64,000 nucleotides of DNA, from the NCBI GenBank assembly GCA_017622175.1, contig JAGARQ010000029.1, positions 30,002 to 94,001 of the forward strand, read 5' to 3'. The notes beneath the pieces are model-generated. The model was given only the letters and a program-made list of their open reading frames with translations, was not told the DNA's origin and did not search any database. Source of the stretch: Bacilli bacterium (GTDB taxonomy: Bacteria > Bacillota_I > Bacilli_A > RF39 > UBA660). Position 1 is the first letter of the stretch. Each line of letters starts with the position of its first letter. Below are positions 19,285 to 45,813 of the stretch, in pieces. Both the position numbers and the translations under genes were made by a program.

Positions 19285-19316
19285 TGAAAAAAAAAGAATC
19301 TATGAGATAGATTCTT
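19285..19316 (-). terminator. Rho-independent terminator closing the Tad-T4SS cluster
   Basis: 10-bp stem AAGAATCTAT (19294-19303) / ATAGATTCTT (19307-19316), loop GAG. Followed on the minus strand by about 9 T's. Overlaps the stop of the last cluster ORF. Confidence 0.6.
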
Positions 19317-20529
19317 ATTTAACCATGTATGGATCTTCTTTTGTACCTGAACCACTCTTATATAAAACGTTAGAGTTTAGGTAAACAACGGGTCTTATTG
19401 CTGCATAGTTATATGTTTCTGTTTCTTTAATACCGTTATTTATACTAACCATATATGCTAAGTAGTTATTTGTTTTTGAAGGTGTTAATGTCCACCATTC
19501 TGTTTTTGGTCCATTTAAATAGTTATAGTTTTGACAGTTTTTGCTTCCTGCTGTTGTACAAGCTGGATCAATACTTGCATTCATATAATCTATTGCTGTT
19601 AGAAGTCCTACTTTTTGATTTTGTTCTGTTTTCTTACATTCAACAGCTTGTTCTACACCTGTTTCTTTTATTCCACGTTCTCCAGAACAAACATTGTATG
19701 TTGTAGTTTTAGCTTTATCACTAGCACTTAAGAATGAGTCTTCTTTATCATATTCTTCTAGTAATTTTTCTTTTAATCTACTTGCTGAATAGTTGTTAAT
19801 TCCAGATTTAAAATTAGACTCTGTATTAAATCTATTATCGTATGGTGATGTCATTTGAAGAGGTTCATCAAGAATTAATACTGTATTACCACTTGATGTG
19901 ATTTTTACCACTCTCCATAAAGAGTTTTCTAATTGTACATAGTTGTTAACTGTTTCACCACGGAATACGTAGTTTCCACTCTTATTATATAGTCCATAAC
20001 CTGAACTTACTGTACTGTTATCAGCTTTTATTTGATCAGATAATTCTCTTGATGTATATGATTCTCCGCAATTTAATTTTGGTGTATATGAGTAAGTACT
20101 TCCTACTTTTTGGACTCTTACTTCTCCAGTACACATTGCATTAGTGTATTTTGATAAATCTTTCATATACCCTTCTGCAACTAAAATTGATACATCAATT
20201 GGTTGTGTTCCACCATCTTTTTTTGGTAAGTTTTCTTTATGATCAGCAAAATATGATTCTGCTGCTTCTGCCATAATTGCTTCAATATCTTCATATGATT
20301 TTTTACCATTACTACAAGATGTTAATAAAAACATAACTAAGATGAAAACTATTACAACCCCTAAAAGTAGTGCTAAAAGTCTAATTAATTTTTTCTTTTC
20401 ATCATTTCCACTATTATTTGATGATGCAGTTTCTTCTAGTTCTACTTCTTCTTCATATTCTTCTTCGTCTAGTTCGTCGGTAACTACTTCTTTTTCTTTG
20501 TCACCATCTACTTTAAAATTCATTGTCAT
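19315..20529 (-). CDS. Membrane-anchored surface protein with one DUF6273-like module
   Basis: Acidic N-terminus (DELDEEEYEEEVELEE), one TM (LLALLLGVVIVFILVMFLL). The ectodomain contains NNYVQLENSLWRVVKI...WWTLTPS...AAIRPVVYLNSNVLYKSGSGTKEDPYMVK, the WRVL / WW..S / VRPA layout I recall for DUF6273. Start set at the second ATG (8 nt after GGAG). Confidence 0.55.
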   Translation of the reverse strand: MTMNFKVDGDKEKEVVTDELDEEEYEEEVELEETASSNNSGNDEKKKLIRLLALLLGVVIVFILVMFLLTSCSNGKKSYEDIEAIMAEAAESYFADHKENLPKKDGGTQPIDVSILVAEGYMKDLSKYTNAMCTGEVRVQKVGSTYSYTPKLNCGESYTSRELSDQIKADNSTVSSGYGLYNKSGNYVFRGETVNNYVQLENSLWRVVKITSSGNTVLILDEPLQMTSPYDNRFNTESNFKSGINNYSASRLKEKLLEEYDKEDSFLSASDKAKTTTYNVCSGERGIKETGVEQAVECKKTEQNQKVGLLTAIDYMNASIDPACTTAGSKNCQNYNYLNGPKTEWWTLTPSKTNNYLAYMVSINNGIKETETYNYAAIRPVVYLNSNVLYKSGSGTKEDPYMVK

Positions 20530-20546
20530 ATGCATATCTCCTTTTA

Positions 20547-22898
20547 TTAATTATCAAAAAAGTCATCAAAGAAATCATCGTCATCACTTTCTTCATCAGT
20601 TAATGTTAAACTGCTCTTTTGTGTGATAACACTATTTACTGGTTCGACTACTTTTTCTTCTAAAGGTTTAATTTTTGGTACTGGTGTTTCTTTCTCTTTT
20701 GTAGTTGTTAGGAATTCATCAAGACTTGAAACTGTACCACCATTTGGTTCTTCTGTTTCTGTTGGTTTTTCTGTCTCAAATGGTTTAGCTTTTGGAATTG
20801 CAACTGGTTTATTAATGATTGGTGTCATTGCTGGTTTTGAAGAATCAGCTCCTGCTTTATTTCTTCTTTCTTCTTCTTCAAGTTCTGCAATTTTAGCATC
20901 AATCTTTTTTACTAGTTCATCTACATCAAATCCTAAATCATCATCAACAGGAGGCTTTGCCATTGGTTCTGTAAATGAAGATTCAACAGGACCACGTGAT
21001 GCAACTCTTCCACCACCCATAACTTTTCGTTCTTCTGCTTCTATTGGATTCCTTGTTAGAAAATCTGGAATTCTTGCAGCTTCTGCTGGTTTGTCAAATG
21101 GAAGTGGTTCCTTTTTCATGAAATCTGTTGGAGGCATTTTTGCCATTATTTCTTTCTTACTGTCATCTGAACCATTCATCATTTCAAGAAGTTTCTTCTT
21201 CTTTTGATCTTTTACAAATTCTTTAATATCAAATGTATCAACTTCTTGTTTCTTTCGTAATGGATATTTTGCAATTGGATATTTTACACCCCAATCTAAT
21301 TTCCAGTTAGGTGTAAGTTTTGTTTTAAACGGTTGTTTACGCATTCTTAAAATTACTGTTTCATATTGTTTCATACGTTGTAAGTCTGATACTGTAACTA
21401 GTGGTGTTGATGCTGTTTTATCATCTTTTTTAGATTTAACTTCACCACACATCTTAGAAATTTCTTCTAAAGCTTTTAATTCTGTAGTAATTAAGTAAAT
21501 AATGTTACCACAGTTACCACGAATTGTTTCTGCATCATCTTTACCATATGTACCATCTAATTGTGCAAAGTTTTGAATAATCATTGTAAATCTGATTCTA
21601 CGAGAACGTGCTGCTGTAATCATTGTTGTTACATCTTTTAACGGCGGCATGTTAGCAAACTCATCTAGAATGAAGTTTGTTCTTACTGGAAGTTTACCAC
21701 CATTTTTTTGAGCTGTAGAAATTAATGTTTCATATATTTGTTTTAATAAAATTGTAACTAATGAGTGATATGTCTTCTTTTCATCTTGAATAACAATAAA
21801 TACTGCAGTTGGTCTTGCTCCAATACTTTCTAAATCTATATCACTATGAGATAACATTTCACTTAAGTTTTCACGTGATGCGAATAATTTAACTTTTTGT
21901 TTAAATACTGAAAGGATACTTCCTTTTGTTTCTGTTGGAGCCATGATTGTACTTGATGCATTAATTGCAGCAGCACTTGCTTGGTCTTTAGCAGCAAAGT
22001 ATTCTTTAATATATGTTGAACCACCAAATTTTTCTTCTCCAACTGTTGTTGCTAAAGAGATACTATTAATATTAATTTCTGATTCTTTAGCATCTTCAAA
22101 TAGTCCTAATGCTACTCCTGAAAAATAGTCAGCTGATGTTTTTTCCCAGAATGGGTCGGCATTTTTATTTGAATCATCATAAAGAATGTTTAATGCTAAG
22201 TCGTCTAGTAACTCAATTGCTTTATCTTGGTTTCCTGATTTATACATTTTATATGGTAATGATAGTGGATTCCATGCATTACCATTTTGTGGATCACGGA
22301 AGTTTAAAAGTAAGATTTGATATCCTCTTTTACGTAACATTAAACTTGTTTGTTCGTAAATTTCACCCTTAGGGTCAGTAATAATCATTGACTCTCTTGC
22401 TTTAGCTAAACTGTTTACTTGTGGAAAAACAATTCCTTGTGTTTTACCTGAACCAGTAGCTCCGATTACAAGTGAGTGGTATTCACTATCGTCAACCCAC
22501 ATTTCATCTTCATTTAAAATAATTGGAATTCCCGCGGCTTTAGAATTTTTTTGTTTAATTTGAACACATTTTAGTTCTTCTTTAATTTCTTTATCTTTTG
22601 CCCATCTTGAATAACCTTTATCTTTTCTATCAGCAGTTAAACCAAAGCCTTTTTCTCTTTCAAAAAAGTATGATCCAACACTGATAAATAGTCCTCCTAG
22701 TGTTAAAAAATATAATACTAGTGTTGTTGTAATATGTTCTGTGCTAAATGCAGGAAATGGATTTAATCCTGATAGTGTTCCGTCTGCTGCAAATGATGAA
22801 AGATTTACTACAGCGATAGCAATAACATATAATAAAACAACTGCAAATACTCCAAATATCATCCAATCTTCTGGGTCTGCACGAAATTTTAGTTTCAT
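20547..22898 (-). CDS. virD4: Type IV coupling protein, VirD4/TraG family, with long disordered C-terminal tail
   Basis: 783 aa. Two N-terminal TM helices, Walker A VIGATGSGKTQG, ITDPKGE, Walker B FILDEFANM, and the IIQNFAQL motif. The last ~240 aa are P/E/K-rich and end in DEESDDDDFFDDFFDN. Confidence 0.85.
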   Translation of the reverse strand: MKLKFRADPEDWMIFGVFAVVLLYVIAIAVVNLSSFAADGTLSGLNPFPAFSTEHITTTLVLYFLTLGGLFISVGSYFFEREKGFGLTADRKDKGYSRWAKDKEIKEELKCVQIKQKNSKAAGIPIILNEDEMWVDDSEYHSLVIGATGSGKTQGIVFPQVNSLAKARESMIITDPKGEIYEQTSLMLRKRGYQILLLNFRDPQNGNAWNPLSLPYKMYKSGNQDKAIELLDDLALNILYDDSNKNADPFWEKTSADYFSGVALGLFEDAKESEININSISLATTVGEEKFGGSTYIKEYFAAKDQASAAAINASSTIMAPTETKGSILSVFKQKVKLFASRENLSEMLSHSDIDLESIGARPTAVFIVIQDEKKTYHSLVTILLKQIYETLISTAQKNGGKLPVRTNFILDEFANMPPLKDVTTMITAARSRRIRFTMIIQNFAQLDGTYGKDDAETIRGNCGNIIYLITTELKALEEISKMCGEVKSKKDDKTASTPLVTVSDLQRMKQYETVILRMRKQPFKTKLTPNWKLDWGVKYPIAKYPLRKKQEVDTFDIKEFVKDQKKKKLLEMMNGSDDSKKEIMAKMPPTDFMKKEPLPFDKPAEAARIPDFLTRNPIEAEERKVMGGGRVASRGPVESSFTEPMAKPPVDDDLGFDVDELVKKIDAKIAELEEEERRNKAGADSSKPAMTPIINKPVAIPKAKPFETEKPTETEEPNGGTVSSLDEFLTTTKEKETPVPKIKPLEEKVVEPVNSVITQKSSLTLTDEESDDDDFFDDFFDN

Positions 22899-22959
22899 AT
22901 TACTACTTCCTTTCTTTTTTCCATATTATTATAACTTATCTTTTATTAAGTGTCATTAA

Positions 22960-23742
22960 TTATTGATTTGAAATTATTATTTTAAAACCTTCATCAGTTA
23001 GTTTGTATAACATATCTGCAGGTTTATCTGTTGAGTATTTTCCACAACTTACAATCATTTCATATTTATTATCTTTATCCATATCTATTACAGCACTTAA
23101 ATATGGTTTACACCCATTGTTAGATCTATTTGGTGCTATATCGGTATACATTGGATAAATTTTGCTATTTTTTACCATAAATACAAGGGAAAAAATTTTA
23201 CTTGGATTATAGTCTAATGAAAATGCATTACTTACAAAGTAGAATGTTTCATTATTACCATCATTATCTATATCAAGAGATGTTTCTGTTGCTACTGTGT
23301 ATTTTGATGATGTACTTAAATCATTTTGTTCAAGAACTTTTTCAACATGATAATAATTTCTAATATCTTTTACATTAAAATCTTTTACTTTTATATCGTA
23401 ATTTGCTTTTATTGCTAAAAGATTTCCATCTCTAGTAATAGCATTTTTTTTCTCATCAAATAGGTACCATTTATCACGATCATTCCAAAGATAATAGTTC
23501 CCTGTTTTTTTATTATCTAAATATACATCGTAATTAGTCCAACTTAATGATTCAATAGTTGAAGGATTAGTTATGTTTGTCCATCCTTCATCTTTATATA
23601 TCCAAACTGATGTATCTCCTACAATTAATGTCATTGTATCTTTGTTTTTTATAAGCATATCTTTACCTAATACTAAAAGCATTAGTATGACATAAACTGC
23701 AAGGGCTGCTAATATCACAATATATCTTTTCTTCTTTTTCAT
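22960..23742 (-). CDS. Membrane-anchored extracellular protein with two DxDxDG-like motifs
   Basis: 260 aa. N-terminal TM (IVILAALAVYVILMLLVL), beta-rich ectodomain with DIDNDGNNETFYF and DMDKDNKYEMIV (FG-GAP/calcium-loop-like). Candidate structural T4SS component (VirB8/TcpC position). The family assignment is not supported by any motif I recognise. Confidence 0.4.
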   Translation of the reverse strand: MKKKKRYIVILAALAVYVILMLLVLGKDMLIKNKDTMTLIVGDTSVWIYKDEGWTNITNPSTIESLSWTNYDVYLDNKKTGNYYLWNDRDKWYLFDEKKNAITRDGNLLAIKANYDIKVKDFNVKDIRNYYHVEKVLEQNDLSTSSKYTVATETSLDIDNDGNNETFYFVSNAFSLDYNPSKIFSLVFMVKNSKIYPMYTDIAPNRSNNGCKPYLSAVIDMDKDNKYEMIVSCGKYSTDKPADMLYKLTDEGFKIIISNQ

Positions 23743-23746
23743 TTAA

Positions 23747-26059
23747 TTACCCCGCTTTAAAGTAGGCAAATGTACTTGTGTTTCTCCAGTCATATTGTGC
23801 CCACATATCTGTACTACTACTTCCTGGGTCCATCATAATAATTGTTTGTCCAGCTATAGCATCAACGGCTACCCAGTGTTGTCCTGTATTACCTTTAACT
23901 TCTGCAACGACATAATATCCTTGATTCATTAGGTCTGTAAGTGTTTTAAGTTTTTGATTTTTTGTATATCCTGAAACATATGCTCTTCCAACGAATTGGA
24001 ATGATGGAGCTGCTTTTGATACTGATGCCCATACGTAGTTTCCTCCAGATACAAACCCACCATTATTGTTTAAGAATTGGACAAATGTTCCTGGGTTAAA
24101 ATCATTTATTACTGTTGGAACTCCACTTTTTGCAACTAACATAGAAATTGATGTAACTAAACATCCTATTTGTCTAATATTTTTACCACTGTTTCCCATT
24201 GGAACTGTTGTCCATGGTCCTTCGTATTGTTTCCAACTTGCATATGGACCAGATGATGCTGTTCCACAGTTTGCAGAACCTGCTGTATTACAAGACATTT
24301 TTTGAATATCGGCTGCTCCATAGTTTCTATTTCCAGAGTTATATACTTGTAATAACATTTGTTTATAGTTCATTCCTTGACTTGCAAGACTAGATAATAA
24401 TTTTTGTTCTGTTGACAGATATCCTGCTTGAATAATATATCCTTGGTCATTAACTAATACTTCTCCTGCTGTTGCAGCCATTGCTGTTCTTAGTTGATGT
24501 TCTGCTGCCAAGGCATCTCTTGTTCTAACTGCTCCTGGAACCTTACCGCTTCGACAGATACCACCTTGTCCATCTCCGCCACCCATAAATGAGCATCCTT
24601 CGTTGATGTTACAGAATACTTGATCAGCTACACATGAAGATATTTGTAATACCCATCTACCATTTTCTTCTTCTAACTTTTTACCTAAGGCATTTCCCAT
24701 ACCAGTAGGTCTTGCTAAAGCAAAACTTCTTGCCATAACCATTTGTGCTTTTAGCACTTCTATATGTGCACTAGGTCCAACCTCTGCATATGCAACACCG
24801 GCAACATATTCTTCAAATGGTACTAAGTCTTGATCGATAGCTTTACCATATGTTCCATTTCCATAAGGTTTACCGCATTCCATCAATCTAACCATTAAAT
24901 TTGATATCTGCATTTGTTTTGGGATGTTTCCTGCTCCTGGGATGTAAAAGCCTTTAATATCATAATTACATGCACCTGCTGCTGCACATCCGTATCCTTC
25001 TGAACCAATGAAACTAAAATATCTGTCCATATAATCAAATACTTCTTCTGTCATTTGTTCACGTTTCTTTTGTGAGGTTCTCGGAAAATATTTATAGAAA
25101 ATTACATTTGTTAGATTATATTTAAATGTTGTTTCATCATAGACGTTTCCACTAAACATGCCATTTGCTATTTCAGTTATCACAGACTCTGTCATAAATT
25201 TATAATCATAGTCGTTATTATTAACATTCATGACATGATATACTGATGCTATTTTTAATGCATCTACACTTTTTCCATTTGCTTGCATTTTTAATTTTAC
25301 AGAGTTAATTCTGTCATAAAATGCTTGAGCTTCTGGGTCTGATGCTGTGAAAACGATGTTTCCTGTTTCGCCACCTGCAGCTCCACTAGCCCCTAGTGCA
25401 TCGTCAAAGTCGGCTACTCCACCACCTACTGCTCCAGATATTGCAAAGAAAAGTAATAATATTCCTGCAAGGGGAGCAACTAAAAGCATAATTGCTTTAG
25501 TTTCTGGTTTCATTTGAAATTCAAACATTGAGTCTAATGGGTCTTGTTCTTCTCCACCCATATCATCTCCGTCATCCATCCAATTTTTGGGTTTCTTTCC
25601 TCCAAATCCTTTGCCAAATCCACCAGATGAATCTGATGATGAACTTGAAGTTGAAGATGCTTTGTCTGCAGCATTTGCCGCATCCCCTGCTTTTGAAGCA
25701 GCATCTGCACCTCCAGATCCACCATTACTCATTCCGTTTTTAATGGCTGCTGCTTGTCCAATTTTATCACTTGCTCCACTTTCACTCATTTTATTTAGTG
25801 AATTTTGAACTTGATTTCCTCCTGGAGCCATTTTATTAGCTTGATTTAGGGCTTTTCCTGCCATTTCAGTACTTTTACCACCCGTAAGTTTATCAGCTGC
25901 TTTAACAGCAGCTCCTGCAGCCATAGCATAAGGATTACCGGAAGCCATGGCTACTTCAGCTGCATTTCTTATGTTGTTAGCATTATTTTGAATATTACGT
26001 TCATCTTGCGACATTTGATTTTCTCTTTGATCGCCTTCACGATTTGCTTCGTATGCCAT
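23747..26059 (-). CDS. Bifunctional cell-wall hydrolase: SpoIID/LytB-like domain plus C-terminal Cys-peptidase (CHAP/C39-like), VirB1 analog
   Basis: 770 aa. ~190-aa G/A/S/N-rich N-region, one TM (AIMLLVAPLAGILLLFFAISGAV). SpoIID-like FEEYVAGVAYAEVGPSAHIEVLKAQMVMARSFAL...ATAGEVLVNDQGYIIQAGY. C-terminal IGCLVTSISMLVAKSG...GQHWVAVDAI (Cys/His pair). Confidence 0.65.
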   Translation of the reverse strand: MAYEANREGDQRENQMSQDERNIQNNANNIRNAAEVAMASGNPYAMAAGAAVKAADKLTGGKSTEMAGKALNQANKMAPGGNQVQNSLNKMSESGASDKIGQAAAIKNGMSNGGSGGADAASKAGDAANAADKASSTSSSSSDSSGGFGKGFGGKKPKNWMDDGDDMGGEEQDPLDSMFEFQMKPETKAIMLLVAPLAGILLLFFAISGAVGGGVADFDDALGASGAAGGETGNIVFTASDPEAQAFYDRINSVKLKMQANGKSVDALKIASVYHVMNVNNNDYDYKFMTESVITEIANGMFSGNVYDETTFKYNLTNVIFYKYFPRTSQKKREQMTEEVFDYMDRYFSFIGSEGYGCAAAGACNYDIKGFYIPGAGNIPKQMQISNLMVRLMECGKPYGNGTYGKAIDQDLVPFEEYVAGVAYAEVGPSAHIEVLKAQMVMARSFALARPTGMGNALGKKLEEENGRWVLQISSCVADQVFCNINEGCSFMGGGDGQGGICRSGKVPGAVRTRDALAAEHQLRTAMAATAGEVLVNDQGYIIQAGYLSTEQKLLSSLASQGMNYKQMLLQVYNSGNRNYGAADIQKMSCNTAGSANCGTASSGPYASWKQYEGPWTTVPMGNSGKNIRQIGCLVTSISMLVAKSGVPTVINDFNPGTFVQFLNNNGGFVSGGNYVWASVSKAAPSFQFVGRAYVSGYTKNQKLKTLTDLMNQGYYVVAEVKGNTGQHWVAVDAIAGQTIIMMDPGSSSTDMWAQYDWRNTSTFAYFKAG

Positions 26060-26085
26060 GCTTCCACCACCTTACTACTTTTATT

Positions 26086-27876
26086 TTAGAATCCTCCGCC
26101 TGAACCGAATGAATCTAACTCTTCTTTTGTTACTACTACGTTAATTCTCATACGTCTACTTCCACATACAAACAGTGCTTCTCCTTGAGAATAACGTTTA
26201 ATGCTTTCTTTTTCGTTTTCATTCAAGTCAATTAATCTTGATAAATCTTCAACAGCTTGTTTCTTTAATCCCATTACTAAGTAATAAGAAGCATTATCGA
26301 AAATAGCTTTTCCATCAGTAATTACTGCTTCATCAGCAAAGTCACTTGGTTGTTGAGTTATGATTATTGTTCCAGTATTGTATTTACGAGCTCTTCTTTG
26401 TACTTGAGCTAAGAACTCTGAACCTTGTTGATTTCTACTACTCATTAATACGTGAGCTTCATCAACTAATAATACTGTATCTACACTTGGATCTAAGCAT
26501 AATCCCCAAGCATATTTTAAAACATTGAATAATAAAGCATTTCTTATATTTGCATCACTATTCATTAATTCTTTAATATTAAATACCATGAAGTCACTAC
26601 CTCGTGGTAATGTTGTGTGTCCATCGAAATAGAATCTTAATTCTTTAACGATTGGTCTAATTTCTAGTTCTAGTCTTTCCATGATATCACGTTCTTTTGT
26701 TTGATCTGTCATAGAAAGAAGTCTTCCCTTAATTGTTGCATAAACATCTGAGAATATTGGGAAATCTTTTGATGAGAATGATGAGAAATCTGTATCAAAG
26801 TCTATACCAAAACGTTTATATGTATCTTGAACTACATCACTAAACATAGCTAAAACATCTTGTGCTATTGCTGGGTTATAGTATTTCATAAAACCTTTAA
26901 GGAAATTTAATGTTCTATTTAATACTGTATATCCCATTCCTTGTTTAATTTCTTCTTCATCCGCGTCAAAAATTACTTCTAGTGGATTGATAAGTCCAAA
27001 TTCTCCACCCTTACCAATATCTACAGTGTCTCCTCCAAAAGATCTTGTGATTTCTCTGAATTCATCTTCTGGATCGATTATAACAATTTGACAACCATTT
27101 CTAATATGTGTTCTCAATAATAGTTTTGCTGCGGTTGATTTTCCTGAACCAGATGTTCCTAGAATAATCATATTAGCATTATTTCTATTATGTTCTTTTC
27201 TTATTTTATATAAGAATTGGTTAAATAGAATTACTCCTCCAGAGAAGTCAACACCTAATAATGTTGATAATCCTGGATCTTTAATACTATCGAAAATAAA
27301 TGGATACATAGCCGCTACTGTTACTGAAGGAATTGGTGTACCAATTCTTTGTTCAATATCTTGTGATGGGAATATTGGTAGCATTGATTTCAATACTTTT
27401 TCTTGTTCAAAGCGTAGTGAAATTGCTCTTAATTCCATTGCATCTAAATAGTTTTTAACATTCATTTTCTTTAATTCTAATTCTTCTTTTGTATTTGCAG
27501 CAATCATGATATGCATTTGGAAATCAAAGTTTTTGGCTTGGCTTCCAGCAATCATTGATGTAAAGTATTCCAAACTTTCTGCATCTTGTCTTAATCTTTC
27601 ACGAATAGTTTGGTCTCTTTCATTACGATATTTTTCTTTTAAATCTGCTACTTCTTTATTTAACATCTTAACCATATCTTGATATGGAACTGGAATATGT
27701 TTAACAACAATTTTAATACCAGCCATGTTTGTAAGTGATGCTAAATAACCAGGTGTAATGTATTTTGGAAATGATACAACAGTTAAAATTGTTGCATATT
27801 TATCACTTATAAAAAAATCACTTGGTGAGAAATGTAACCCCTTCGGAGCTAATTGACTTCTTAAACCTGTACTCAT
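26086..27876 (-). CDS. virB4: VirB4-family T4SS ATPase (ATPase part)
   Basis: 596 aa. LAPKGLHFSPSDFFISDKYATILTVVSFPKYITPGYL N-region typical of Gram-positive VirB4 (TraE/PrgJ/TcpF type). Walker A ILGTSGSGKST, Walker B VLLVDEAH, IIITQQPSDF. Confidence 0.85.
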   Translation of the reverse strand: MSTGLRSQLAPKGLHFSPSDFFISDKYATILTVVSFPKYITPGYLASLTNMAGIKIVVKHIPVPYQDMVKMLNKEVADLKEKYRNERDQTIRERLRQDAESLEYFTSMIAGSQAKNFDFQMHIMIAANTKEELELKKMNVKNYLDAMELRAISLRFEQEKVLKSMLPIFPSQDIEQRIGTPIPSVTVAAMYPFIFDSIKDPGLSTLLGVDFSGGVILFNQFLYKIRKEHNRNNANMIILGTSGSGKSTAAKLLLRTHIRNGCQIVIIDPEDEFREITRSFGGDTVDIGKGGEFGLINPLEVIFDADEEEIKQGMGYTVLNRTLNFLKGFMKYYNPAIAQDVLAMFSDVVQDTYKRFGIDFDTDFSSFSSKDFPIFSDVYATIKGRLLSMTDQTKERDIMERLELEIRPIVKELRFYFDGHTTLPRGSDFMVFNIKELMNSDANIRNALLFNVLKYAWGLCLDPSVDTVLLVDEAHVLMSSRNQQGSEFLAQVQRRARKYNTGTIIITQQPSDFADEAVITDGKAIFDNASYYLVMGLKKQAVEDLSRLIDLNENEKESIKRYSQGEALFVCGSRRMRINVVVTKEELDSFGSGGGF

Positions 27877-38620: not shown

Positions 38621-41602
38621 CTATTCTACACTTGAACGGTAGTTTTCATTGTTTACTCCAGGTTTTCCTAATTTAATAATTGAGTTAGGAACTTCTGTTA
38701 AAACTTTTGTATGACTTCCTACATTTCTAAATAAATTACTTTGATATACTTTAATTCCGTTTACTAGTTCAACTGTACCATCCCATGATGCATAATCATT
38801 ATTATTATTATAAGATTTGATTTTTGCAAGAGTTGCTGGTGTTAAGTAGAATTTGTAATCTAGGTTATTTGCATCATCACTATATAGTGTTGCTGCACCA
38901 TTTTCAATGTGGTCAATTAATGCTACAGGGTCAACTACATATTTATCATTTTTGATTGATAATGCTTTTGATGTCCAGTTGAATCCGATTTCTCGTTTAT
39001 CTGGATCTACAACTCCTTCTTCCACTGCATTAGGGAATAGGTTATTTACTGCAACTGATCTAAATGTATAATTACTTACACCATTTGATTCTTTTGCTGT
39101 TGTTCCACAACATCCATTTTCTTGAACATTACAAATTTCATTTCTTAATCCATAGAAACAATTGATATCGAAATTCCATCCGAAATATCCAAATTTCTTA
39201 GCTTTAGCTGAAATATTGTATCCATTTGATGTTCCTGTTTTTCCTGCTAATTCACTTTCAATTTCTGAACGTGTATAACATGTATTTCCAAGTTTATACC
39301 ATTCCCACCATTTTACGTTTACACTATCTGCATCTAATGGCATACAGAATTTTTTATCATCATAGTACCAACCGTCTGTAACATCTGGTCTTTGGAATGA
39401 TATTTCTCCAGTTTTGTTATGAATATAAGTTCCTGGGAAACTCCATTCAGTCATGTAATGATTTCCTACATCTTTGTTTTTATAACATCCATCGAAATCA
39501 AGAATTGATGATCTACTTCTATCAGTTATATTATTTGTTTTATTTGCGATTAATGTATCTTTCTTAGTATCGTATGGGAATGTTACTGTATTTTGTTTTT
39601 TAACTTCATTTGTTGTTGTATCGTATGTTAATGAAATTGAGAATTCTGCAGTATGTTCTGAACATGTTGCTGTTCCAATACAAGATCTTACTGCATCTTC
39701 GTATGCTGCTTGGTTAGCTTTTGCATCTTGTTCAATTGTACCTGGATTTAAGTAATCATTTCCGTCAACTGAATTAGGTGTTCTTTGACATAATCCTGTT
39801 GTCTTGTTAGCTTTATCTTCTGCATCACCTTTATATCTCCAGTGACAATTATCAGTACATAATGAATTATATCTATTTGAACGATAGATACCATCTTGGT
39901 CTGCTACATATGAATCCCAATCACCACCGGCTTCAACACTATCTTTATATGCTTCTTTTATTCCTGTAATCTTATATCCGCCATTACTACGTACGTAATT
40001 AGCATTAGCATTCCACTCATCTAAATAAGTTCCATCTGCTTGTTTATATACTCTATCAATATACCAACGTCCTAAGGCATATCTTCTATTCCATACTTGT
40101 TGTTTGAAAACAGCTTCTTCTTTTCCGTTTACTGTTTCTACTGCATAATTTGTATGAGATAACCATTTAATTTCATCACCATTATATACATAACATCCAA
40201 AATAATTAGCATTATCTTTTAGACATTGTGCTTGGCTATATAAACTAGCATCTGTTGCCATTGCTGTTTTTGCAAGAAGTGCATCTTCATAATTGATGGC
40301 AAGTTTTGGATTTGATTTTCCATACACTTCGTTATAACATTTAATACTACATTTTTCTGAGTATTTTCCACCATCACATGATTTAACACATTGATCAAAT
40401 TGTTCTTTTGGTCCAGCTTGTTCTAGATTTCTAAGTGTTCCATTTATTGAATAACAAATTGGTGCTGGATTACAATAACTTGTAAATTCTTTTGGTGGTT
40501 GTGCAATAACTTCTGCTGTACATTTTACATAACTTGTTACTTTTACTTTATATTCAAAACATAGTCCAGCTTTTGAAGCAATTGGTGGTCCATACTCTAC
40601 TTTTACTGCTTCTTCACAAGTTCTTTTACACGCTTGTTGTGTATCTGTTACTGTGTTACCAGGAGCAAAGTTATATACATATTTTACTTCTCCATCAATT
40701 GTTGTTGCTGATGAGTAATAATAATCTTTGTTTAAATAATAATCTATTGAAGATATAGAATCTCCATATTCGTTTGTATAAACTACTGGTGTGTCTGCTC
40801 CAGTTTTTACTTTATCATAAGCACATTTTAATGTAAGTGTTGTGTTTAATGGATCTAGCACAACATTTGTTGTTGGATACTTATGAGCTTTGTCCTTAAC
40901 ATCATTAAATAAAGCATTAAAATCAGCTGTACCTGAGTTATTTTGATTTTGATAAGCAGTCCATAATGAGACAATACTATCTATTTTCTTTTGTAATTCT
41001 GTTTCAGTGTAGTTAACTACTACTGATGTTTGATAACAGTATGGTAAAGCTGTTTCGAAGAACGCAACTCCGTTTTGAGCAATTGCTGTTTGTCTGAAGT
41101 TTGCACATAATCCATAATAATTTGTATTTGCCTTACCTACAGTTCCTGTACCTGCAGCTTCTCTTTCTTCAAGGTATTGAACTTCAATCTTTTCATCTGG
41201 ATTAGCTACGTTTTCTACTATAACTGACACATAATATGTGTTACCATTGATTGGTCCTAAGAAACCGGCTTTGAACACATGATTATTGTTGTCTTTTGTT
41301 AATGTTACTCCTGTTGTAACAGCAGTTCCATTTACCGAAATAATTTTAACAGATACATCTGAGTGAACTTTACCGTCTTCACATTTTATTGCTGGATCTT
41401 TAATAAGTCTGAACTCATCAGGATTTCCAGTTGCTTCTATATATAATCCGTATTTATCGACTAGTTGTTCACATGACAATGGTGTAACTGTTTCAGTAGC
41501 GGTTGGCGCTTCTTCTGCTTTAATTTGCGGAATAACCATAACCGCACAAATCATTACTAATAAAATGACAACCCCAATTATTCTACGCTTTAGATTTTGC
41601 AT
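38621..41602 (-). CDS. Large Cys-rich secreted protein (candidate fibre tip, adhesin or effector)
   Basis: 993 aa from ATG at 41602 (MQNLKRRIIGVVILLVMICAVMVIPQIKAEE, 9 nt after GGAAGGAG). The track start at 41623 is TTG. About 29 Cys in the mature part by my count, often paired (QQACKRTCEE, DQCVKSCDGGKYSEKCSIKCY, NGCCGT). No LPXTG or C-terminal TM. No family recognised. Confidence 0.6.
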   Translation of the reverse strand: MQNLKRRIIGVVILLVMICAVMVIPQIKAEEAPTATETVTPLSCEQLVDKYGLYIEATGNPDEFRLIKDPAIKCEDGKVHSDVSVKIISVNGTAVTTGVTLTKDNNNHVFKAGFLGPINGNTYYVSVIVENVANPDEKIEVQYLEEREAAGTGTVGKANTNYYGLCANFRQTAIAQNGVAFFETALPYCYQTSVVVNYTETELQKKIDSIVSLWTAYQNQNNSGTADFNALFNDVKDKAHKYPTTNVVLDPLNTTLTLKCAYDKVKTGADTPVVYTNEYGDSISSIDYYLNKDYYYSSATTIDGEVKYVYNFAPGNTVTDTQQACKRTCEEAVKVEYGPPIASKAGLCFEYKVKVTSYVKCTAEVIAQPPKEFTSYCNPAPICYSINGTLRNLEQAGPKEQFDQCVKSCDGGKYSEKCSIKCYNEVYGKSNPKLAINYEDALLAKTAMATDASLYSQAQCLKDNANYFGCYVYNGDEIKWLSHTNYAVETVNGKEEAVFKQQVWNRRYALGRWYIDRVYKQADGTYLDEWNANANYVRSNGGYKITGIKEAYKDSVEAGGDWDSYVADQDGIYRSNRYNSLCTDNCHWRYKGDAEDKANKTTGLCQRTPNSVDGNDYLNPGTIEQDAKANQAAYEDAVRSCIGTATCSEHTAEFSISLTYDTTTNEVKKQNTVTFPYDTKKDTLIANKTNNITDRSRSSILDFDGCYKNKDVGNHYMTEWSFPGTYIHNKTGEISFQRPDVTDGWYYDDKKFCMPLDADSVNVKWWEWYKLGNTCYTRSEIESELAGKTGTSNGYNISAKAKKFGYFGWNFDINCFYGLRNEICNVQENGCCGTTAKESNGVSNYTFRSVAVNNLFPNAVEEGVVDPDKREIGFNWTSKALSIKNDKYVVDPVALIDHIENGAATLYSDDANNLDYKFYLTPATLAKIKSYNNNNDYASWDGTVELVNGIKVYQSNLFRNVGSHTKVLTEVPNSIIKLGKPGVNNENYRSSVE

Positions 41603-42431
41603 TTTTTTCATCTCCTTCCACAATTTTTCTTATTTCTTCATAATTCTTGTTTGCTTTTGATTCATAATTGTTTAACTTTTCATTTTCTCTTAATTGTCTT
41701 CCTACAACAACAAGTTGTCTTTTGTCATATTGACCAAACATTCTTGTACAAGTTGTTAATGTAATTAATTTATCATTTTCATCAACTTCTATGTCAAAAT
41801 CGTAGACATTTAATTCTTTTATTTGATTTAAATATTTTTTAGTTTCTTCTTTTGTGTAGTTTTCTTCATGCCTTAAGTCAAGATTAAAACTTCTATCAAA
41901 GAATACACCAAATATTTTATAAACATAATCTTCTCCATTTATTGTATATTGAATATGTTTATTTTCAGCTACAAAGTCTTCATAGACAAAAGCCATTAAA
42001 TCATCAAATCTAGAAAAATATTCTTTACCAATTAGTGGTTGTTTAGATAAATTTAGTATATTATGTCCAGATATTGCCACTTGATTAAATAGTTTTTCTT
42101 TATTGTTACTATTCCAAGCATAATCTGCTTTTTCTACTTTATCAAGAGCAGTTACATTGTCATAACTAATTATCGGAGTATCAATATTTGTTCCTTGCAC
42201 TCTTAACCAAGCTATTGTTTCATAACCTAATTCTTTTTTATCTTTTTTCTTTTCTTTTTCGATTGTTTTTATTCTACTTTCAACTTCAAATTTCTTTGTA
42301 TCTGTATTATTTATGATTACTAATAAAGCTGATACAATACAGCAACAAATCAGAAGACCTGTTACTAAGACTAATGTCTTGATCCTCTGACTTTGTTTTA
42401 ATTTTAATTTTTTCTTTCGCAACTTCGTCAT
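41583..42431 (-). CDS. srtB: Class B sortase
   Basis: 282 aa. N-terminal TM, IAWLRVQGTNIDTPIISY, ISGHNILN (catalytic His), LITLTTCTR (TLXTC Cys), QLVVVGRQLR (Arg). The layout matches SrtB-type enzymes. Confidence 0.75.
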   Translation of the reverse strand: MTKLRKKKLKLKQSQRIKTLVLVTGLLICCCIVSALLVIINNTDTKKFEVESRIKTIEKEKKKDKKELGYETIAWLRVQGTNIDTPIISYDNVTALDKVEKADYAWNSNNKEKLFNQVAISGHNILNLSKQPLIGKEYFSRFDDLMAFVYEDFVAENKHIQYTINGEDYVYKIFGVFFDRSFNLDLRHEENYTKEETKKYLNQIKELNVYDFDIEVDENDKLITLTTCTRMFGQYDKRQLVVVGRQLRENEKLNNYESKANKNYEEIRKIVEGDEKNAKSKA

Positions 42432-42439
42432 TGTTACAC

Positions 42440-44251
42440 CTACTTACTAACTGTATATGGAAAATCAACTGTTCCATTTCCTTTTGTAATATTTACTGAT
42501 TTTTTCAAATTAGCTACAACTCTTATTCCATATTTGTCGTAGTTTCCAATTCCGTCTGTTAGAACAACGCCTGCATCGGTTACCGCTGTTTTTTGTAATT
42601 CGCTTTTTGTTGAATTGATTAGCCAATAAGAACGAGTTGAATTAACCACTGTTGATTTTGAACTAAACATTTCATACATATTTGGAGCTGATAGTTTAAC
42701 TTTATATTTTTTTGTTTCAGTTTGTTTTCCATATAGCATTCCATTTTCGTAGATAGGAACTTCGATGTTCTTATTTACAAAATATGATGTATCAATAAAC
42801 TCACTTACTTTGTTGTTTATATAATGTCCAACATTTCCTTTTTGAAGTGGATTGTAAGTTTTTTCTTCAGTTTTTACATCTTCATAATTTGTCGTTACAT
42901 TTGTTCCACTTTGTTTAACATTTTCTACGGAAATTATTCTTGTTGTCCCATCACTATTCACTTCTAAAATTCTCCATAAAATACCTCCATAACTAATGTA
43001 TTCACCAGAGTATCTTTTATTTATTGGTTCATCAGATTTACCTGTTTTAATTTCACCAAATTCATATGGGGAAATTCTAGTTCCATCACCTTTTTTAATA
43101 AGCGTATCTCCTTTTATTGTTAAAACAGGACGTACTCCATAATTTTTTTCTTTTGAATCAATGTAGAATCTACTTCCAGCAGCATTACCATAGAAAACGC
43201 TTCTTGTTGTATATGCTGTTTTATCATCCGCTACGTTTGCTAACCATGAAATTGTAGAAGGTTTCATAAATGAATTTTTATTTTCATCTAGTGTTTTATT
43301 AACATCAACAACTGATGGAATATATGCATATCTATTTTTTGTATATGCAGTACACTCTAAGGCTGATGAATTTTCAGCAGTAACTGGCATATTACAATAT
43401 TTGTTTTTTACTAATAGTTTTTTTGCTTCTTCAGCAATGTGTTTCATATAGTAATTATCTAGCCAAGAACTAATTCCTGAGTAGTTTACATTTGCAATAT
43501 CTTCTTCTGCTACAACTTTAACATTTTCTCCATCTATGCCAATAATTCTAAATAACATTCCTGATAATCTTACATAATTATTTGGCGTTGCTCCTGTATA
43601 GTATCCTTTTTTTTCTGTTGCAACATTAACTGCATTTTTAATTTTTGATACAACTTCAACAGTTCTTGTAACTGTTGTTTTATTTTTTAGAGCATCTAAA
43701 ACTGTATATGTAACTTCATATGTACCAACTTTATTAGTGTCCACCTTCTTAGAGTTAATTGTTACTTTTTTTGTATCTATTTTTCCATCTGTATTATCAA
43801 CTACGCTTTTTACTCCAAGTTCTTTATATTTTTCTCCTAAATCAACTGTGATTTTATCCGAACCATTCAATTTAATATCTGGTCCTTTATTATCTACATT
43901 TGATTTCATAGCACCACATTGTAGATATGTATAGTATTTATACTCTCCATCTACTTTTCTTACTTTCACCCATGATTCTTTTAAATCACATGGTTTATCA
44001 GTATAAGGAATATAAAAATCTTCTTCTAAATATGATTTATGATATAAAGTTTGCATATCTACAGTTGCTACACGTGTTCCTGTAGGTAGTTCTGTATGAT
44101 TAAGATTAAAATACCTTTTGGCTGCTGTTTCTAAAGTGTTTTCATATTTTTTAAAACTATACATCGGTTTAATTACTATAAACCAAGCAAATAAGGCTAT
44201 TATTACTACTACAACTAAAAGTTTTATATATTTCATTGTCTTGCTATTCAT
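42440..44251 (-). CDS. Membrane-anchored surface protein: Ig-like (DUF5011-type) domain plus two DUF6273-like modules
   Basis: 603 aa. N-terminal TM. GPDIKLNGSDKITVDLGEKYKELGVKSVVDNTDGKIDTKKV...VGTYEVTYTVLDALKNKTTVTRTVEVV fits the DUF5011 Ig pattern. Two modules follow, ending YGVRPVLTIKGDTLIKKGDGTRISPYEFG and YGIRVVANLKKSVNITKGNGTVDFPYTVSK. Confidence 0.55.
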   Translation of the reverse strand: MNSKTMKYIKLLVVVVIIALFAWFIVIKPMYSFKKYENTLETAAKRYFNLNHTELPTGTRVATVDMQTLYHKSYLEEDFYIPYTDKPCDLKESWVKVRKVDGEYKYYTYLQCGAMKSNVDNKGPDIKLNGSDKITVDLGEKYKELGVKSVVDNTDGKIDTKKVTINSKKVDTNKVGTYEVTYTVLDALKNKTTVTRTVEVVSKIKNAVNVATEKKGYYTGATPNNYVRLSGMLFRIIGIDGENVKVVAEEDIANVNYSGISSWLDNYYMKHIAEEAKKLLVKNKYCNMPVTAENSSALECTAYTKNRYAYIPSVVDVNKTLDENKNSFMKPSTISWLANVADDKTAYTTRSVFYGNAAGSRFYIDSKEKNYGVRPVLTIKGDTLIKKGDGTRISPYEFGEIKTGKSDEPINKRYSGEYISYGGILWRILEVNSDGTTRIISVENVKQSGTNVTTNYEDVKTEEKTYNPLQKGNVGHYINNKVSEFIDTSYFVNKNIEVPIYENGMLYGKQTETKKYKVKLSAPNMYEMFSSKSTVVNSTRSYWLINSTKSELQKTAVTDAGVVLTDGIGNYDKYGIRVVANLKKSVNITKGNGTVDFPYTVSK

Positions 44252-44259
44252 AATGCCTC

Positions 44260-45813
44260 CTATCTAATTTTATAAACATATCGATTATTTCTTATTGTGT
44301 ATTCCAATTCAATAGAATTTGAATTTGCAACAGCTACTGGAATCTTAATAAATAAGTACTTTCCGTAGTATGTTTTATTGAATGGATTTTTGATTGTAAG
44401 TACAGTCTTCTTATTCTTATTATCTATATAATTTATTGTACCATATTTGATTGAAAAGTCAATCATATCTTTGCCCTCAAAATTGTTTGAAGAAAAAGGA
44501 ATTTTAAGGATTTTGAACCCCTCTCCAGCACTGTAATTTGCAGTCTTTGTAGAACAGTTTGAACTAGTACAAATTCTATATGAATAATTTACTGTATCTA
44601 GTAGTTCATAATCATCAAAAATTATTTCTTCTGTTTTTTCTTTTAATTTAAATTTTAATTCTTGGCCGATTGAAAGTTTTTTATGAGTAATAATTTCTGA
44701 TACATCTGTCATTTTTAATTTAATTTTTCTTAAATGTGGCTTATCACCATTAAATTCTTGATAATATAATACAAATCTATTTTTTGATAATTTCTTATCA
44801 ACTTTAAAAATCATTATTAAATTTTGTTCTGCATCTCTTTTTAAATCTAATACTTGGTATGCTTTACCAAAATCTTGAAATTCTGTTTCGTATGTTTTTG
44901 CTGTTGTTACATAGTCTTTAATTCCGTTCATTATGTGGAATTTTTGTAAGTCTACTTCTCTTTGTTGCATATTGTTTTTAATGTTTAAATTGACTATTAC
45001 AAAGGCACTTTTATCACTTATTTCTCTTCCTGCGTAGTCTTTGTCTGTATAATAACTTTTATTTATGGTTATTGTATAACCATTTGCATTTAATGATTGA
45101 CCTTGTTTGTATGATTTATTTGTTACAAATACAAATTTATATGTACCAAAAAGGAGTAACACAAATAAAACTGATGCTACTATGTTTATTATTAATTTAT
45201 GTTCTATATAAATATAGCTTATATTTCTAAAGAAACGCTTTGTACCTCTTTTTAAGCTATCTTTATCAAAATTAATATTAATTTCTAATTCTTCTCTATC
45301 TTCATTGCTTAGTTCAAGAAATTCTTCATCTGATTGGAAATTAAATTTCTTTAGGTCTACACCTACGGAACGTACTAAGAAAATTAACATTGATGGATAT
45401 TGAAGTACTCCAGCAATAAACAAGAAGTCTCGTACCGCTCTTATACCAGCAGAGTCAACTATCCCATTATATTGATCAAAGAAACTCTTTGCTGAAAAGA
45501 ATACTATTACCATAAAAATATATGTAAAGGCTGGAATTATATATAATTTCCATGGTTTCTTTTTATGATGTAATAATATAATTAAAACTATACTTCCTAT
45601 AAACAATAATAACATTGCTAGTATTGGCAAGAATGAAACATAATTAGTTATTGGTTCATTATACATATCATATGTTTCTAGGCGCATAAATTCATTTACA
45701 AATGATGTTATTTGTAAATGTTTGTAATATATAAAAGCACTTAAAAATAATAATATGATGTGTATTTTCTTAAAATGTTTTATTAAAAAGGCATACGGTT
45801 TTCTAATTATCAT
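44260..45813 (-). CDS. Polytopic membrane protein with extracellular beta-rich (DUF4352-like) domain; first gene of the cluster
   Basis: 517 aa. About 5 TM helices in the first 230 aa. AFVIVNLNIKNNMQQREVDLQKFHIMNG...NLIMIFKVDKK resembles the DUF4352 Ig-like fold pattern. RBS AAGGGAGTG. Confidence 0.45.
   Translation of the reverse strand: MIIRKPYAFLIKHFKKIHIILLFLSAFIYYKHLQITSFVNEFMRLETYDMYNEPITNYVSFLPILAMLLLFIGSIVLIILLHHKKKPWKLYIIPAFTYIFMVIVFFSAKSFFDQYNGIVDSAGIRAVRDFLFIAGVLQYPSMLIFLVRSVGVDLKKFNFQSDEEFLELSNEDREELEININFDKDSLKRGTKRFFRNISYIYIEHKLIINIVASVLFVLLLFGTYKFVFVTNKSYKQGQSLNANGYTITINKSYYTDKDYAGREISDKSAFVIVNLNIKNNMQQREVDLQKFHIMNGIKDYVTTAKTYETEFQDFGKAYQVLDLKRDAEQNLIMIFKVDKKLSKNRFVLYYQEFNGDKPHLRKIKLKMTDVSEIITHKKLSIGQELKFKLKEKTEEIIFDDYELLDTVNYSYRICTSSNCSTKTANYSAGEGFKILKIPFSSNNFEGKDMIDFSIKYGTINYIDNKNKKTVLTIKNPFNKTYYGKYLFIKIPVAVANSNSIELEYTIRNNRYVYKIR

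Follow-up and report, generated by a model that had tools for sequence, protein, structure and literature searches.

Genes resembling those of a Tad-type pilus and genes of a Gram-positive type IV secretion system (T4SS) stand in one uninterrupted run on the chromosome of a Bacilli bacterium assigned to the GTDB order RF39. The question that this locus raises is whether the two sets form one machine, and whether that machine still belongs to a mobile element or has been taken over by the cell that carries it. The locus lies in a 64-kb chromosomal stretch of contig JAGARQ010000029.1, hereafter the window, in which positions 19315-45813 of the minus strand hold 22 co-oriented open reading frames (ORFs) with short gaps or overlaps between them. 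We named these genes g01 to g22, with g01 at the 45813 end: g01-g04 and g22 encode surface and accessory proteins, g05-g12 a Tad-like module that may act as a filament motor, and g13-g21 the T4SS components. Independent gene calling on an identical metagenome contig returned the same 22 genes. Overall, we consider it probable that the cluster is a chromosomally fixed, vertically inherited and co-opted derivative of the mating apparatus found on pLS20- and pXO2/pAW63-type plasmids, now serving its host cell.

Kinship with Bacillus conjugation plasmids

A first-pass annotation of the window, made from the DNA alone, had proposed that a combination of Tad-type and T4SS genes would be new. The same layout is in fact annotated in a pLS20-family plasmid and in pBMB67, of the pXO2/pAW63 family. 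Homologues of VirB11, VirB4 and VirD4 were listed together for pAW63 in 2005 (PMC1196294), and in the pLS20 family genes 34, 36-41, 45-50 and 52-54 are conserved, with gene 37 designated a "putative VirB11" (PMC8557374). As far as gene content goes, pAW63, pLS20 and pBMB67 therefore contradict the claim that Tad-type genes are not known in company with T4SS genes. We found no literature that reads this sub-module as Tad-like.

Homology to the plasmid counterparts was detected for g06, g07, g08, g09, g17, g18 and g21 by pairwise or profile comparison, and tblastn matched six window proteins (g06, g07, g09, g17, g18 and g21) to their counterparts in pBMB67. Relatives of the g07 ATPase occur on 649 plasmids, mainly of Bacillus, Listeria and Enterococcus. 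In pLS20, where the corresponding region spans genes 34-54, the likeness extends to gene order: an adhesin, a small one-helix protein, a CpaF/VirB11-type ATPase and two membrane proteins of ~250-270 aa are accompanied by pilin-sized small proteins, a two-helix hairpin, a protein with a C-terminal helix and a soluble protein of ~360 aa. The T4SS part likewise comprises VirD4 (CD1115), an extended VirB6 (pLS20_p028), a VirB3-like protein, a split VirB4 and a wall hydrolase. Pairwise identity to pLS20 was recorded for the three ATPases only, at 34% for the CpaF/VirB11-type ATPase, 28% for VirD4 and 23% for VirB4.

The two systems also differ in several respects. The pLS20 operon resides on a plasmid, ends with a MOBP2 relaxase gene, and is subject to quorum-sensing control and equipped for surface exclusion, whereas the window cluster is chromosomal and lineage-wide and has no relaxase nearby. 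In pLS20, VirD4 precedes VirB6 and directly follows the gene 47 equivalent; the plasmid lacks a CpaB-like gene, a sortase and DUF6273 proteins; and its hydrolase joins a lytic transglycosylase to a C40 peptidase, as opposed to the SpoIID domain and weakly matching C39-like domain of the window cluster.

The pXO2/pAW63/pBT9727/pBMB67 family supplies the best plasmid matches to VirB4, from B. thuringiensis, at 29-30% identity over 99% of the length. In pBMB67, one set of genes encodes a MOBP3 relaxase, VirD4 (CD1115), TrbL, PrgI and a split VirB4. The other set encodes a large surface protein, a weak DUF5411 match in the position of g05, an SAF/CpaB protein, an AAA_31 (ParA-like) ATPase, a type II secretion/type IV pilus ATPase, two membrane proteins, small proteins and a DUF4320 protein. 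These plasmids differ from the window in being extrachromosomal and carrying a MOBP3 relaxase, partition genes, transposons and introns; furthermore, several genes separate the two modules, and a canonical ParA-like TadZ lies between CpaB and the ATPase. Published accounts regard the ATPase of this family as VirB11 and not as part of a Tad-like module. Sequence and profile comparison establish both homology and collinearity between the cluster and the conjugation operons of plasmids.

Conservation and chromosomal fixity in RF39

A VirB4 scan with one genome per species found relatives in at least 489 species-representative genomes, and we inspected the best 80 loci, whose VirB4 proteins are 80-98% identical. 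Their titles name uncultured Mycoplasma, Tenericutes, Bacilli or Erysipelotrichaceae metagenome-assembled genomes (MAGs) from gut and rumen, and include "Mycoplasma sp. CAG:877" and Candidatus Faecimonas gallistercoris (locus L063); Candidatus Faecimonas corresponds to GTDB CAG-877, in the order RF39 (PMC8035907). Similarly, the g07 ATPase has 7499 homologues at E-values up to 1e-20, of which the best 120 are 73-100% identical and, where named, are titled "MAG: Bacilli bacterium". Where the ATPase is 86% or 73% identical, the surrounding DNA carries the same 22 genes, and their lengths are nearly equal. The cluster is thus kept by an order-level, genome-reduced gut lineage, GTDB order RF39 and its close kin. 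The first-pass annotation, framed around a single genome, overlooked this conservation at a fixed locus; the cluster is not peculiar to the genome in which it was noticed.

The chromosomal neighbourhood is shared as well. Genes for a rhodanese, a VTT protein and RmuC follow the cluster in 64-69 of the 80 loci, and the remaining loci stop at contig edges. On the other side, the cluster adjoins greA in 10 of 10 contigs with identical GreA, among those listed, and no empty site was seen. In locus L018, at 73% ATPase identity, the 1-1504 interval upstream of g01 holds a sortase gene and a gene for a 353-aa protein of no named family, not greA, so that conservation is lower at the greA junction than on the RmuC side.

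Both flanks of the window had been described as housekeeping regions. The precomputed Pfam annotation, which covers the window from ~2.5 kb to its end and leaves the ORFs of the first ~2.4 kb unannotated, bears this out, with solely housekeeping functions among its hits. One flank encodes DNA polymerase III alpha, LspA, an RluD-type synthase, a rhomboid protein, IreB and RuvX and, further, MltG, U32 peptidases, an HD hydrolase and GreA; the opposite flank encodes the rhodanese, VTT and RmuC proteins, a class Ib tRNA synthetase, trigger factor, Lon, Fur and rubrerythrin. The same hits include no relaxase, integrase or Rep, and the 64-kb window contains no tRNA gene, in keeping with the first reading of the DNA. 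In addition, when the MOBP2 and MOBP3 plasmid relaxases were compared by tblastn with 1.9 Mb of related loci, the best E-value was 0.9. The relaxase-less status holds for this inspected sequence and not for whole genomes.

These observations bear on the suggestion that the cluster is part of an ordinary integrative and conjugative element (ICE), intact or in decay, with integrase and relaxase genes located beyond the window. The machinery is certainly of conjugative type, and total GC content is higher in the cluster (30-37%) than in the flanks (25-29%). That excess, however, sits at codon position 2 (0.343 in the cluster versus 0.279 in the flanks), whereas GC at codon position 3 (GC3) resembles that of the flanks (0.156 versus 0.143), which points to amino-acid composition and not to foreign codon usage. 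Moreover, comparison with three close relatives gave dN/dS values of 0.03-0.38 for each gene tested, with 0.03 for VirB4 and 0.035 for g08. Intact genes under such constraint, the same neighbours in most species, the lack of an empty site among the identical-GreA contigs, and the lack of tRNA, integrase and relaxase genes in the window from ~2.5 kb to its end all speak against an ICE, a reading that we regard as largely refuted and very improbable. The cluster is intact, under purifying selection and, in the sequence inspected, free of nearby mobility or DNA-processing genes.

The rate of change within the cluster is that of housekeeping genes. Median identities across loci are 84% for VirB4, 79% for the ATPase, about 74-75% for g08 and g09 (the latter in 66 species), 73% for VirD4 and 72% for g10, compared with 47% for the neighbouring rhodanese, 50% for the VTT protein and 85% for RmuC. 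By mean p-distance, VirB4 (0.124) is more conserved than RmuC (0.165). Distances of cluster proteins correlate with those of RmuC in Mantel tests (r 0.39-0.55, p 0.002). From the missing relaxase, integrase and replicon, together with this slow evolution, we infer co-option for a host-serving function. Among three roles floated in the first-pass annotation, that of a domesticated remnant of a conjugative element comes closest to this picture, except that the cluster, with its intact genes and low dN/dS, is no remnant.

Whether the Tad-like and T4SS genes act together can be approached through their order in relatives. Both modules stand in the same order in the loci for which 10 kb of upstream flank was recovered, with L091, L089 and L092 as exceptions, and a full-length Tad-like ATPase is present in 57 of the 80 loci. 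The comparison of relatives proposed with the first-pass annotation thus finds the modules together in nearly every locus inspected, which argues that they are not separable neighbours. Among the exceptions, L089 lacks g06 and g07 within its flank, and in L091 two genes are inserted between the modules, displacing the Tad-like genes outward. Positions 3133-6181 of L091 and 2962-6007 of L092 encode an amine-oxidase-like flavoprotein and a protein of ~500 aa between the TadZ-like and T4SS pilin genes.

A more distant arrangement occurs in a low-GC lineage at 28-30% identity, where positions 9209-14539 of locus L105 (and likewise L106) encode CpaB, a g08-like, a g09-like and a g12-like protein, followed by TrbL. 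The genes rplQ, truA, rplM and rpsI and ECF-transporter genes are its neighbours, no ATPase gene lies between those for CpaB and the g08-like protein, and small pilin genes are missing. This locus looks like a differently arranged chromosomal relative, and its gene order indicates that the modules are linked and chromosomal even at ~30% identity.

The contrasting possibility is that an adhesive Tad-type pilus and a separate T4SS are merely adjacent and share no mechanism. Locus L092, whose T4SS genes have no Tad-like genes within 10 kb upstream, and the insertion in L091, which marks the junction as a place where genes can enter, fit this proposal. Precedents for separate roles also exist: the type IV pilus of IncI plasmids serves as a mating aid only (PMC12857230), and TANB77 gut bacteria carry a divergent Tad cluster, its TadB and TadC recognised by structure only, with no T4SS mentioned (PMC11680825). 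Against independence stand the interleaved order, which is the same in Bacillus plasmids, in RF39 and in the ~30%-identical lineage, and the position of the T4SS hairpin genes between the TadZ-like gene and that for VirB6. The placement of pLS20 VirD4 directly behind the gene 47 equivalent argues the same way, as do the distances of Tad-like and T4SS proteins, which co-vary with r of 0.50-0.65. We judge two unconnected neighbours improbable, and continue with the preferred reading of a single co-opted apparatus.

Tad-like and T4SS components

Every sequence motif quoted in the first-pass annotation was found in the translations, and most of its family assignments could be examined further. In the Tad-like module, g07 (35949-37244, minus strand) encodes a secretion ATPase that belongs to the Tad/archaeal-pilus branch and goes by the name "VirB11" in papers on the plasmids. 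It matches T2SSE with 98.5 bits (cut-off 24.9), and its closest solved structures are FlaI (7.8e-19) and CpaF (5.6e-18), with VirB11 behind at 1.3e-13, so that its earlier designation as a CpaF/TadA ATPase is well founded. The protein is below every NCBIfam equivalog cut-off, the VirB11 and TadA-conjugal models scoring 106.6 and 105.3, and is 34% identical to the CpaF/VirB11 protein of the pLS20 family. Its core is 73-100% conserved in homologues of 431 to ~608 aa (P0079-P0120), and a low-complexity C-terminal tail rich in Pro, Gln and Thr is variable.

Two partners of the ATPase point to the same branch. The product of g06 (37293-38099, minus strand) had been called CpaB-like, and although its profile matches are below cut-off (RcpC, 26.9 bits versus 28.8; TIGR03177, E 7e-11 and 41.8 bits versus 71), the SAF protein of pBMB67 matches it at 29% identity (E 3e-19) and a distant homologue in L105 matches RcpC confidently. 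We therefore describe it as a CpaB/RcpC-like SAF protein. The g12 protein (32380-33459, minus strand) has no sequence-level match in Pfam or in a PDB sequence search. Its AlphaFold2 (AF2) model, with a pLDDT of 78.9, comprises two well-predicted domains, an N-terminal receiver/flavodoxin-like domain and a C-terminal MinD/ParA-like fold with a degenerate P-loop. Foldseek aligned structure 3fkq, which we take to be TadZ of Eubacterium rectale, across both domains (E 9.4e-4, probability 0.95), and also returned ParA, MinD, FlhG, HypB and UreG. The TadZ-like assignment proposed earlier is thus upheld by fold and not by sequence.

The adjoining membrane proteins proved harder to place. The g08 gene (35027-35929, minus strand) encodes a 300-aa polytopic protein, a candidate platform protein homologous to pLS20 gene 38, and g09 (34218-35024, minus strand) a 268-aa membrane protein that is a second candidate, matched by a 244-aa pBMB67 protein at 24% identity (E 1e-4). 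A g08-family profile that included distant homologues, drawn from a library of 1.84 billion proteins, aligned in hhalign with pBMB67 h305 (96.7%, E 4e-10) and with pLS20 gene 38 (96.1%, E 3e-9). Clustered at 50% identity, all family members of the lineage fall into a single group, next to about a dozen distant full-length groups.

Both proteins had been put forward as T2SSF platform proteins, an identity that the searches left unconfirmed. Pfam returned no T2SSF match in g08 or g09, in 29 members of the g08 family at E-values up to 10, or in 10 distant g08 homologues; two PDB profile searches with the g08 family were empty; hhalign found no usable match between g08 and g09, with shallow alignments (Neff 1.5); and an AF2 model of g08 reached a pLDDT of 56, its Foldseek matches being meaningless. 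What fits platform proteins in g08 and g09 is their size, topology and position beside the ATPase only.

Three small genes encode pilin-like products. The 55-aa protein of g10 (33972-34139, minus strand) carries a short, charged leader ahead of a hydrophobic helix, and its N-terminus, MKAATGELNLTVITL, is nearly invariant in an alignment of 67 sequences. The description of g10 as a Flp-like prepilin stands in so far as this architecture is pilin-like; in the same 67 sequences, however, we found neither the Flp motif G/XXXXEY nor EY after Gly, and the protein has no match to Flp_Fap or any other Pfam family. In the consensus of 67 sequences, the 156-aa pseudopilin-like protein of g11 (33483-33953, minus strand), which has no Pfam family match, begins with a leader, MRDAFGG, related to that of g10. 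The g05 gene (38120-38605, minus strand) encodes a small DUF5411 protein (163 bits) with an N-terminal membrane helix, also pseudopilin-like.

Overall, the module resembles Tad/Flp (type IVc) systems in its CpaF/FlaI-nearest ATPase, its CpaB-like and TadZ-like proteins and its small proteins with charged leaders and hydrophobic helices. It differs from them in being embedded in a T4SS operon and in that the window shows no T2SSF signature, no G/XXXXEY motif and, in its annotated part, no prepilin peptidase (Peptidase_A24, TadV/CpaA). Because the ATPase is nearest to FlaI and CpaF and is accompanied by TadZ-like g12 and CpaB-like g06, the evidence supports an ATPase module of filament type and not of VirB11 type, Tad-like in its way of working and not by strict family membership.

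The T4SS part begins with two hairpin proteins that had been described as VirB2/TrbC-like. The g13 gene (32004-32324, minus strand) encodes a 106-aa two-helix hairpin, a candidate VirB2-like T4SS pilin, and g14 (30844-31911, minus strand) a 355-aa secreted protein with a C-terminal hairpin. T4SS_pilin matches are weak in both (15.1 bits and E 0.025 for g13; 11 bits for the g14 C-terminus) and in relatives, but reach 28.7 bits in L092 against a cut-off of 26.6. BLASTP aligned g13 with residues 281-353 of g14 at 34% identity (E 3e-12), and this paralogy supports the earlier description.

The polytopic g15 protein (28752-30815, minus strand) was said to be VirB6-like, and its matches are consistent with an extended VirB6/TrbL-like protein, though both are below cut-off (TrbL_4, 17.6 bits versus 27, E 0.0027; pLS20_p028, 39 bits versus 150, E 4.4e-10); the L105 gene in the equivalent position passes TrbL_4 (30.9 versus 27). 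For g16 (28402-28728, minus strand), a 108-aa two-helix protein previously labelled PrgI/VirB3-like, position and size agree with that label, the equivalents being annotated as PrgI in pBMB67 and DUF5592 in pLS20, but no profile hidden Markov model (HMM) matched and the identity is unconfirmed.

The proposed two-part VirB4 is clear. The g17 gene (27873-28433, minus strand) encodes the N-terminal domain as a separate 186-aa ORF, TraC-like in the precomputed Pfam annotation and resembling VirB4_plasma, the VirB4 of mycoplasma ICEs, below cut-off (E 1.4e-14). The C-terminal ATPase part is encoded by g18 (26086-27876, minus strand), with 57.2 bits for AAA_10, 47.5 for P-loop_TraG and 38.2 for DUF87, and the same split occurs in pBMB67 and pLS20. 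Similarly, g21 (20547-22898, minus strand) encodes, as had been noted, a VirD4 coupling protein, here of the CD1115 family and with a long acidic tail; it scores 305.6 bits against the CD1115 equivalog NF045973 (cut-off 250) and 199 bits for T4SS-DNA_transf.

Between these lie two further genes. The g19 product (23747-26059, minus strand) had been read as a hydrolase joining SpoIID to a Cys peptidase. Its SpoIID/LytB domain passes (47.1 bits, cut-off 23), whereas the C-terminal C39-like peptidase match is weak (Peptidase_C39_2, 19.2 versus 24, E 0.0019) and a PDB sequence search with the C-terminus was empty. The g20 gene (22960-23742, minus strand) encodes a 260-aa membrane-anchored protein present in 65 of the 80 loci and without a family match in Pfam, NCBIfam or PHROGs.

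A composition of this kind gives weight to a serious rival, namely that the machine still conjugates DNA, moving chromosomal DNA between RF39 cells in an Hfr-like or mycoplasma-like manner with an initiator that is encoded elsewhere or unrecognised. All characterised relatives are conjugation machines, the VirD4 protein exceeds the cut-off of a conjugal equivalog, the N-terminal part of VirB4 resembles that of mycoplasma ICEs, and relaxase-poor chromosomal transfer systems have been described (PMC12857230). Set against these points, no relaxase is present in the annotated window, nor one of MOBP2 or MOBP3 type in the 1.9 Mb of related loci, whereas pLS20 and pBMB67 carry theirs in or beside the operon. 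Order-wide fixation with a VirB4 more conserved than RmuC would also be unusual for gene exchange, if not exclusive of it. We consider chromosomal conjugation unlikely, and a co-opted, host-serving apparatus the better account.

Surface proteins flank this machinery. The 603-aa product of g02 (42440-44251, minus strand) has an Ig-like domain (Bact_surface_Ig-like, 64 bits), and g22 (19315-20535, minus strand) encodes a DUF6273 surface protein (27.1 bits versus 23.5). BLASTP matched the two to each other with E-values of 2e-6 and 4e-4, as paralogues, and in this sense the statement that DUF6273-like proteins stand at both ends is borne out. The g01 gene (44260-45813, minus strand) encodes a 517-aa protein with several N-terminal membrane helices and an extracellular domain; it has no Pfam or NCBIfam match, and relatives carry a gene of the same size.

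The 993-aa Cys-rich secreted protein reported earlier is the product of g04 (38621-41602, minus strand), in which we counted 30 Cys and which is 993 aa long on sister contigs too. It has no family match in Pfam, NCBIfam or PHROGs, and is the positional equivalent of the Tie/thioester adhesin of pLS20, with the pBMB67 adhesin in a like position. The g03 gene (41583-42431, minus strand) encodes a sortase with an intact TLTTC catalytic motif (Sortase, 35.4 bits versus 26.6). Its assignment to class B is weaker, SrtB scoring 57.5 bits against a cut-off of 153.75, and by eye no classical C-terminal sorting signal (motif, hydrophobic stretch and basic tail) was seen in g02, g04, g14 or g22. Locus L018 has a second sortase upstream of the cluster.

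Two readings of the locus were considered and rejected. A prophage is contradicted by zero phage family matches; a PHROGs search with six family-less cluster proteins, g04 and g20 among them, was empty. A wall-less mollicute host is contradicted by the wall hydrolase, the sortase and MltG in the flank, all of which argue for a peptidoglycan wall.

At its borders the cluster had been placed between two terminators, and its 22 tightly packed minus-strand ORFs indeed end and begin at AT-rich hairpins. A terminator-like hairpin with a T9 run follows g22 (19283-19316, minus strand; -8 kcal/mol, z -4.0). Between greA and g01, folding revealed two terminator-like hairpins with T-runs (45888-45962, minus strand), with stems at 45925-45962 (-9.5 kcal/mol, z -5.5) and 45888-45925 (-13.6 kcal/mol, z -5.7). 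A consensus terminator scan detected neither border because it requires at least three G-C pairs and the stems are AT-rich.

Sister contigs keep a possible outlying component, which is separated from the cluster by 6 kb and surrounded by housekeeping genes. The gene at 51835-52713 (minus strand) encodes a 292-aa protein with a T4SS_pilin domain (31.7 bits, cut-off 26.6) and an NlpC/P60 peptidase domain (54.3 bits). In pLS20 a single protein unites lytic transglycosylase and C40 peptidase, and this product may therefore complement the T4SS wall hydrolase as its C40-peptidase counterpart. Its neighbour at 51013-51822 (minus strand) encodes a 269-aa protein without a family match.

A candidate host function and its meaning

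By analogy with its homologues, the cluster would encode one envelope-spanning, contact-dependent translocation machine. VirD4 would recruit cytoplasmic substrates, which would traverse a membrane channel of VirB4, the VirB3-like protein and the extended VirB6, while the SpoIID-peptidase hydrolase would open the wall. The FlaI/CpaF-like ATPase, together with g08, g09 and the CpaB-like and TadZ-like proteins, might assemble a short fibre or piston from the pilin-like proteins g10, g11 and g05 and perhaps also from the VirB2-like hairpins g13 and g14. The sortase and the surface proteins (Cys-rich, Ig-like and DUF6273) would provide contact with a partner cell. Most likely, the machine would serve to exchange macromolecules (DNA or protein) with neighbouring cells or to acquire them there.

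The closest functional analogue appears to be the chromosomal, relaxase-less T4SS of Patescibacteria. In that group, for example in Southlakia epibionticum, the system is chromosomal and composed of monoderm-type VirB1/3/4/6/8/D4-like proteins; it is nearly lineage-wide, mostly without a relaxase, and has been read as co-opted from conjugation (PMC12102498; PMC12857230). The Southlakia T4SS is essential by transposon sequencing (Tn-seq; PMC12102498). The RF39 cluster shares with it a chromosomal location, lineage-wide occurrence, the lack of a nearby relaxase, VirB2-like pilin genes and a genome-reduced, auxotrophic host; for the pilin genes, the T4SS_pilin match that underlies the likeness is weak within the cluster and above cut-off in L092 and at 51835-52713. 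In contrast, Patescibacteria belong to another phylum and have six-pilin arrays, a separate type IV pilus elsewhere in the genome and no FlaI/CpaF-type module within the operon.

According to published descriptions, RF39 bacteria have reduced genomes, lack de novo nucleotide synthesis and possibly depend on other cells (PMC13155120), and the reduced genome and missing nucleotide synthesis make a role in contact-dependent acquisition or exchange attractive. A stronger proposal, which we advance tentatively, is that RF39 depend on this machine as Saccharibacteria do on their T4SS, with a T4SS channel and a Tad-like fibre forming a lineage-defining, near-essential, contact-dependent conduit; the strong purifying selection on its genes is the one indirect sign of such a requirement. 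It is conceivable, at the same tentative level, that this abundant group of human and animal gut bacteria, auxotrophic for nucleotides and amino acids, uses such a conduit to take up macromolecules, for instance DNA as a nucleotide source, or to deliver them.

Several points weigh against a co-opted apparatus of the kind that we favour. Its function and substrate are read from the genes alone. A relaxase or a prepilin peptidase may be encoded elsewhere in the genome, only the best 80 of at least 489 loci were inspected, and the Mantel correlations are moderate. Within the Tad-like module, no sequence test assigned g08 or g09 to T2SSF, the structure model of g08 was of too low quality to help, and g10 lacks the Flp motif. 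L092, the sole such case among the examined loci with full flanks, has its T4SS genes without the Tad-like ones, and g01-g04 were seen in the contexts of only a few relatives.

The gene architecture itself is already known from plasmids, and what appears undescribed is its chromosomal, order-wide domestication in RF39; in the literature that we searched, nothing relevant was found on a T4SS or a pilus in this order. The same holds for an interpretation in which the "VirB11" sub-module of Gram-positive systems is a filament motor of the Tad/archaeal type, working with partners that resemble TadZ and CpaB: it, too, appears to be undescribed. Recent reviews hold that T4SSs of Gram-positive bacteria have neither VirB11 homologues nor pili (PMC12857230), and no T4SS pilin homologue turned up in the FATA class in a 2014 survey of mating-pair formation classes (PMC4027160). 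The textbook statement is touched by the present comparison, since both here and in pLS20/pXO2-type plasmids the "VirB11" is nearer to FlaI and CpaF and stands beside CpaB-, TadZ- and pilin-like genes. The filament-motor idea is directly testable in the genetically tractable pLS20.

If co-option is correct, RF39 would join Patescibacteria as a second example of a host function built from a conjugation apparatus. Should the tentative dependence on it hold as well, the domestication of a monoderm conjugation apparatus would have occurred a second time, independently, and for the first time with a type IV filament motor as an integral part. Hundreds of RF39 species retain the 26-kb machine at a single locus, with a VirB4 more conserved than RmuC; it is likely to be central to the lifestyle of these bacteria, and the cluster offers a concrete target for the cultivation and co-culture of a widespread and as yet uncultured order.

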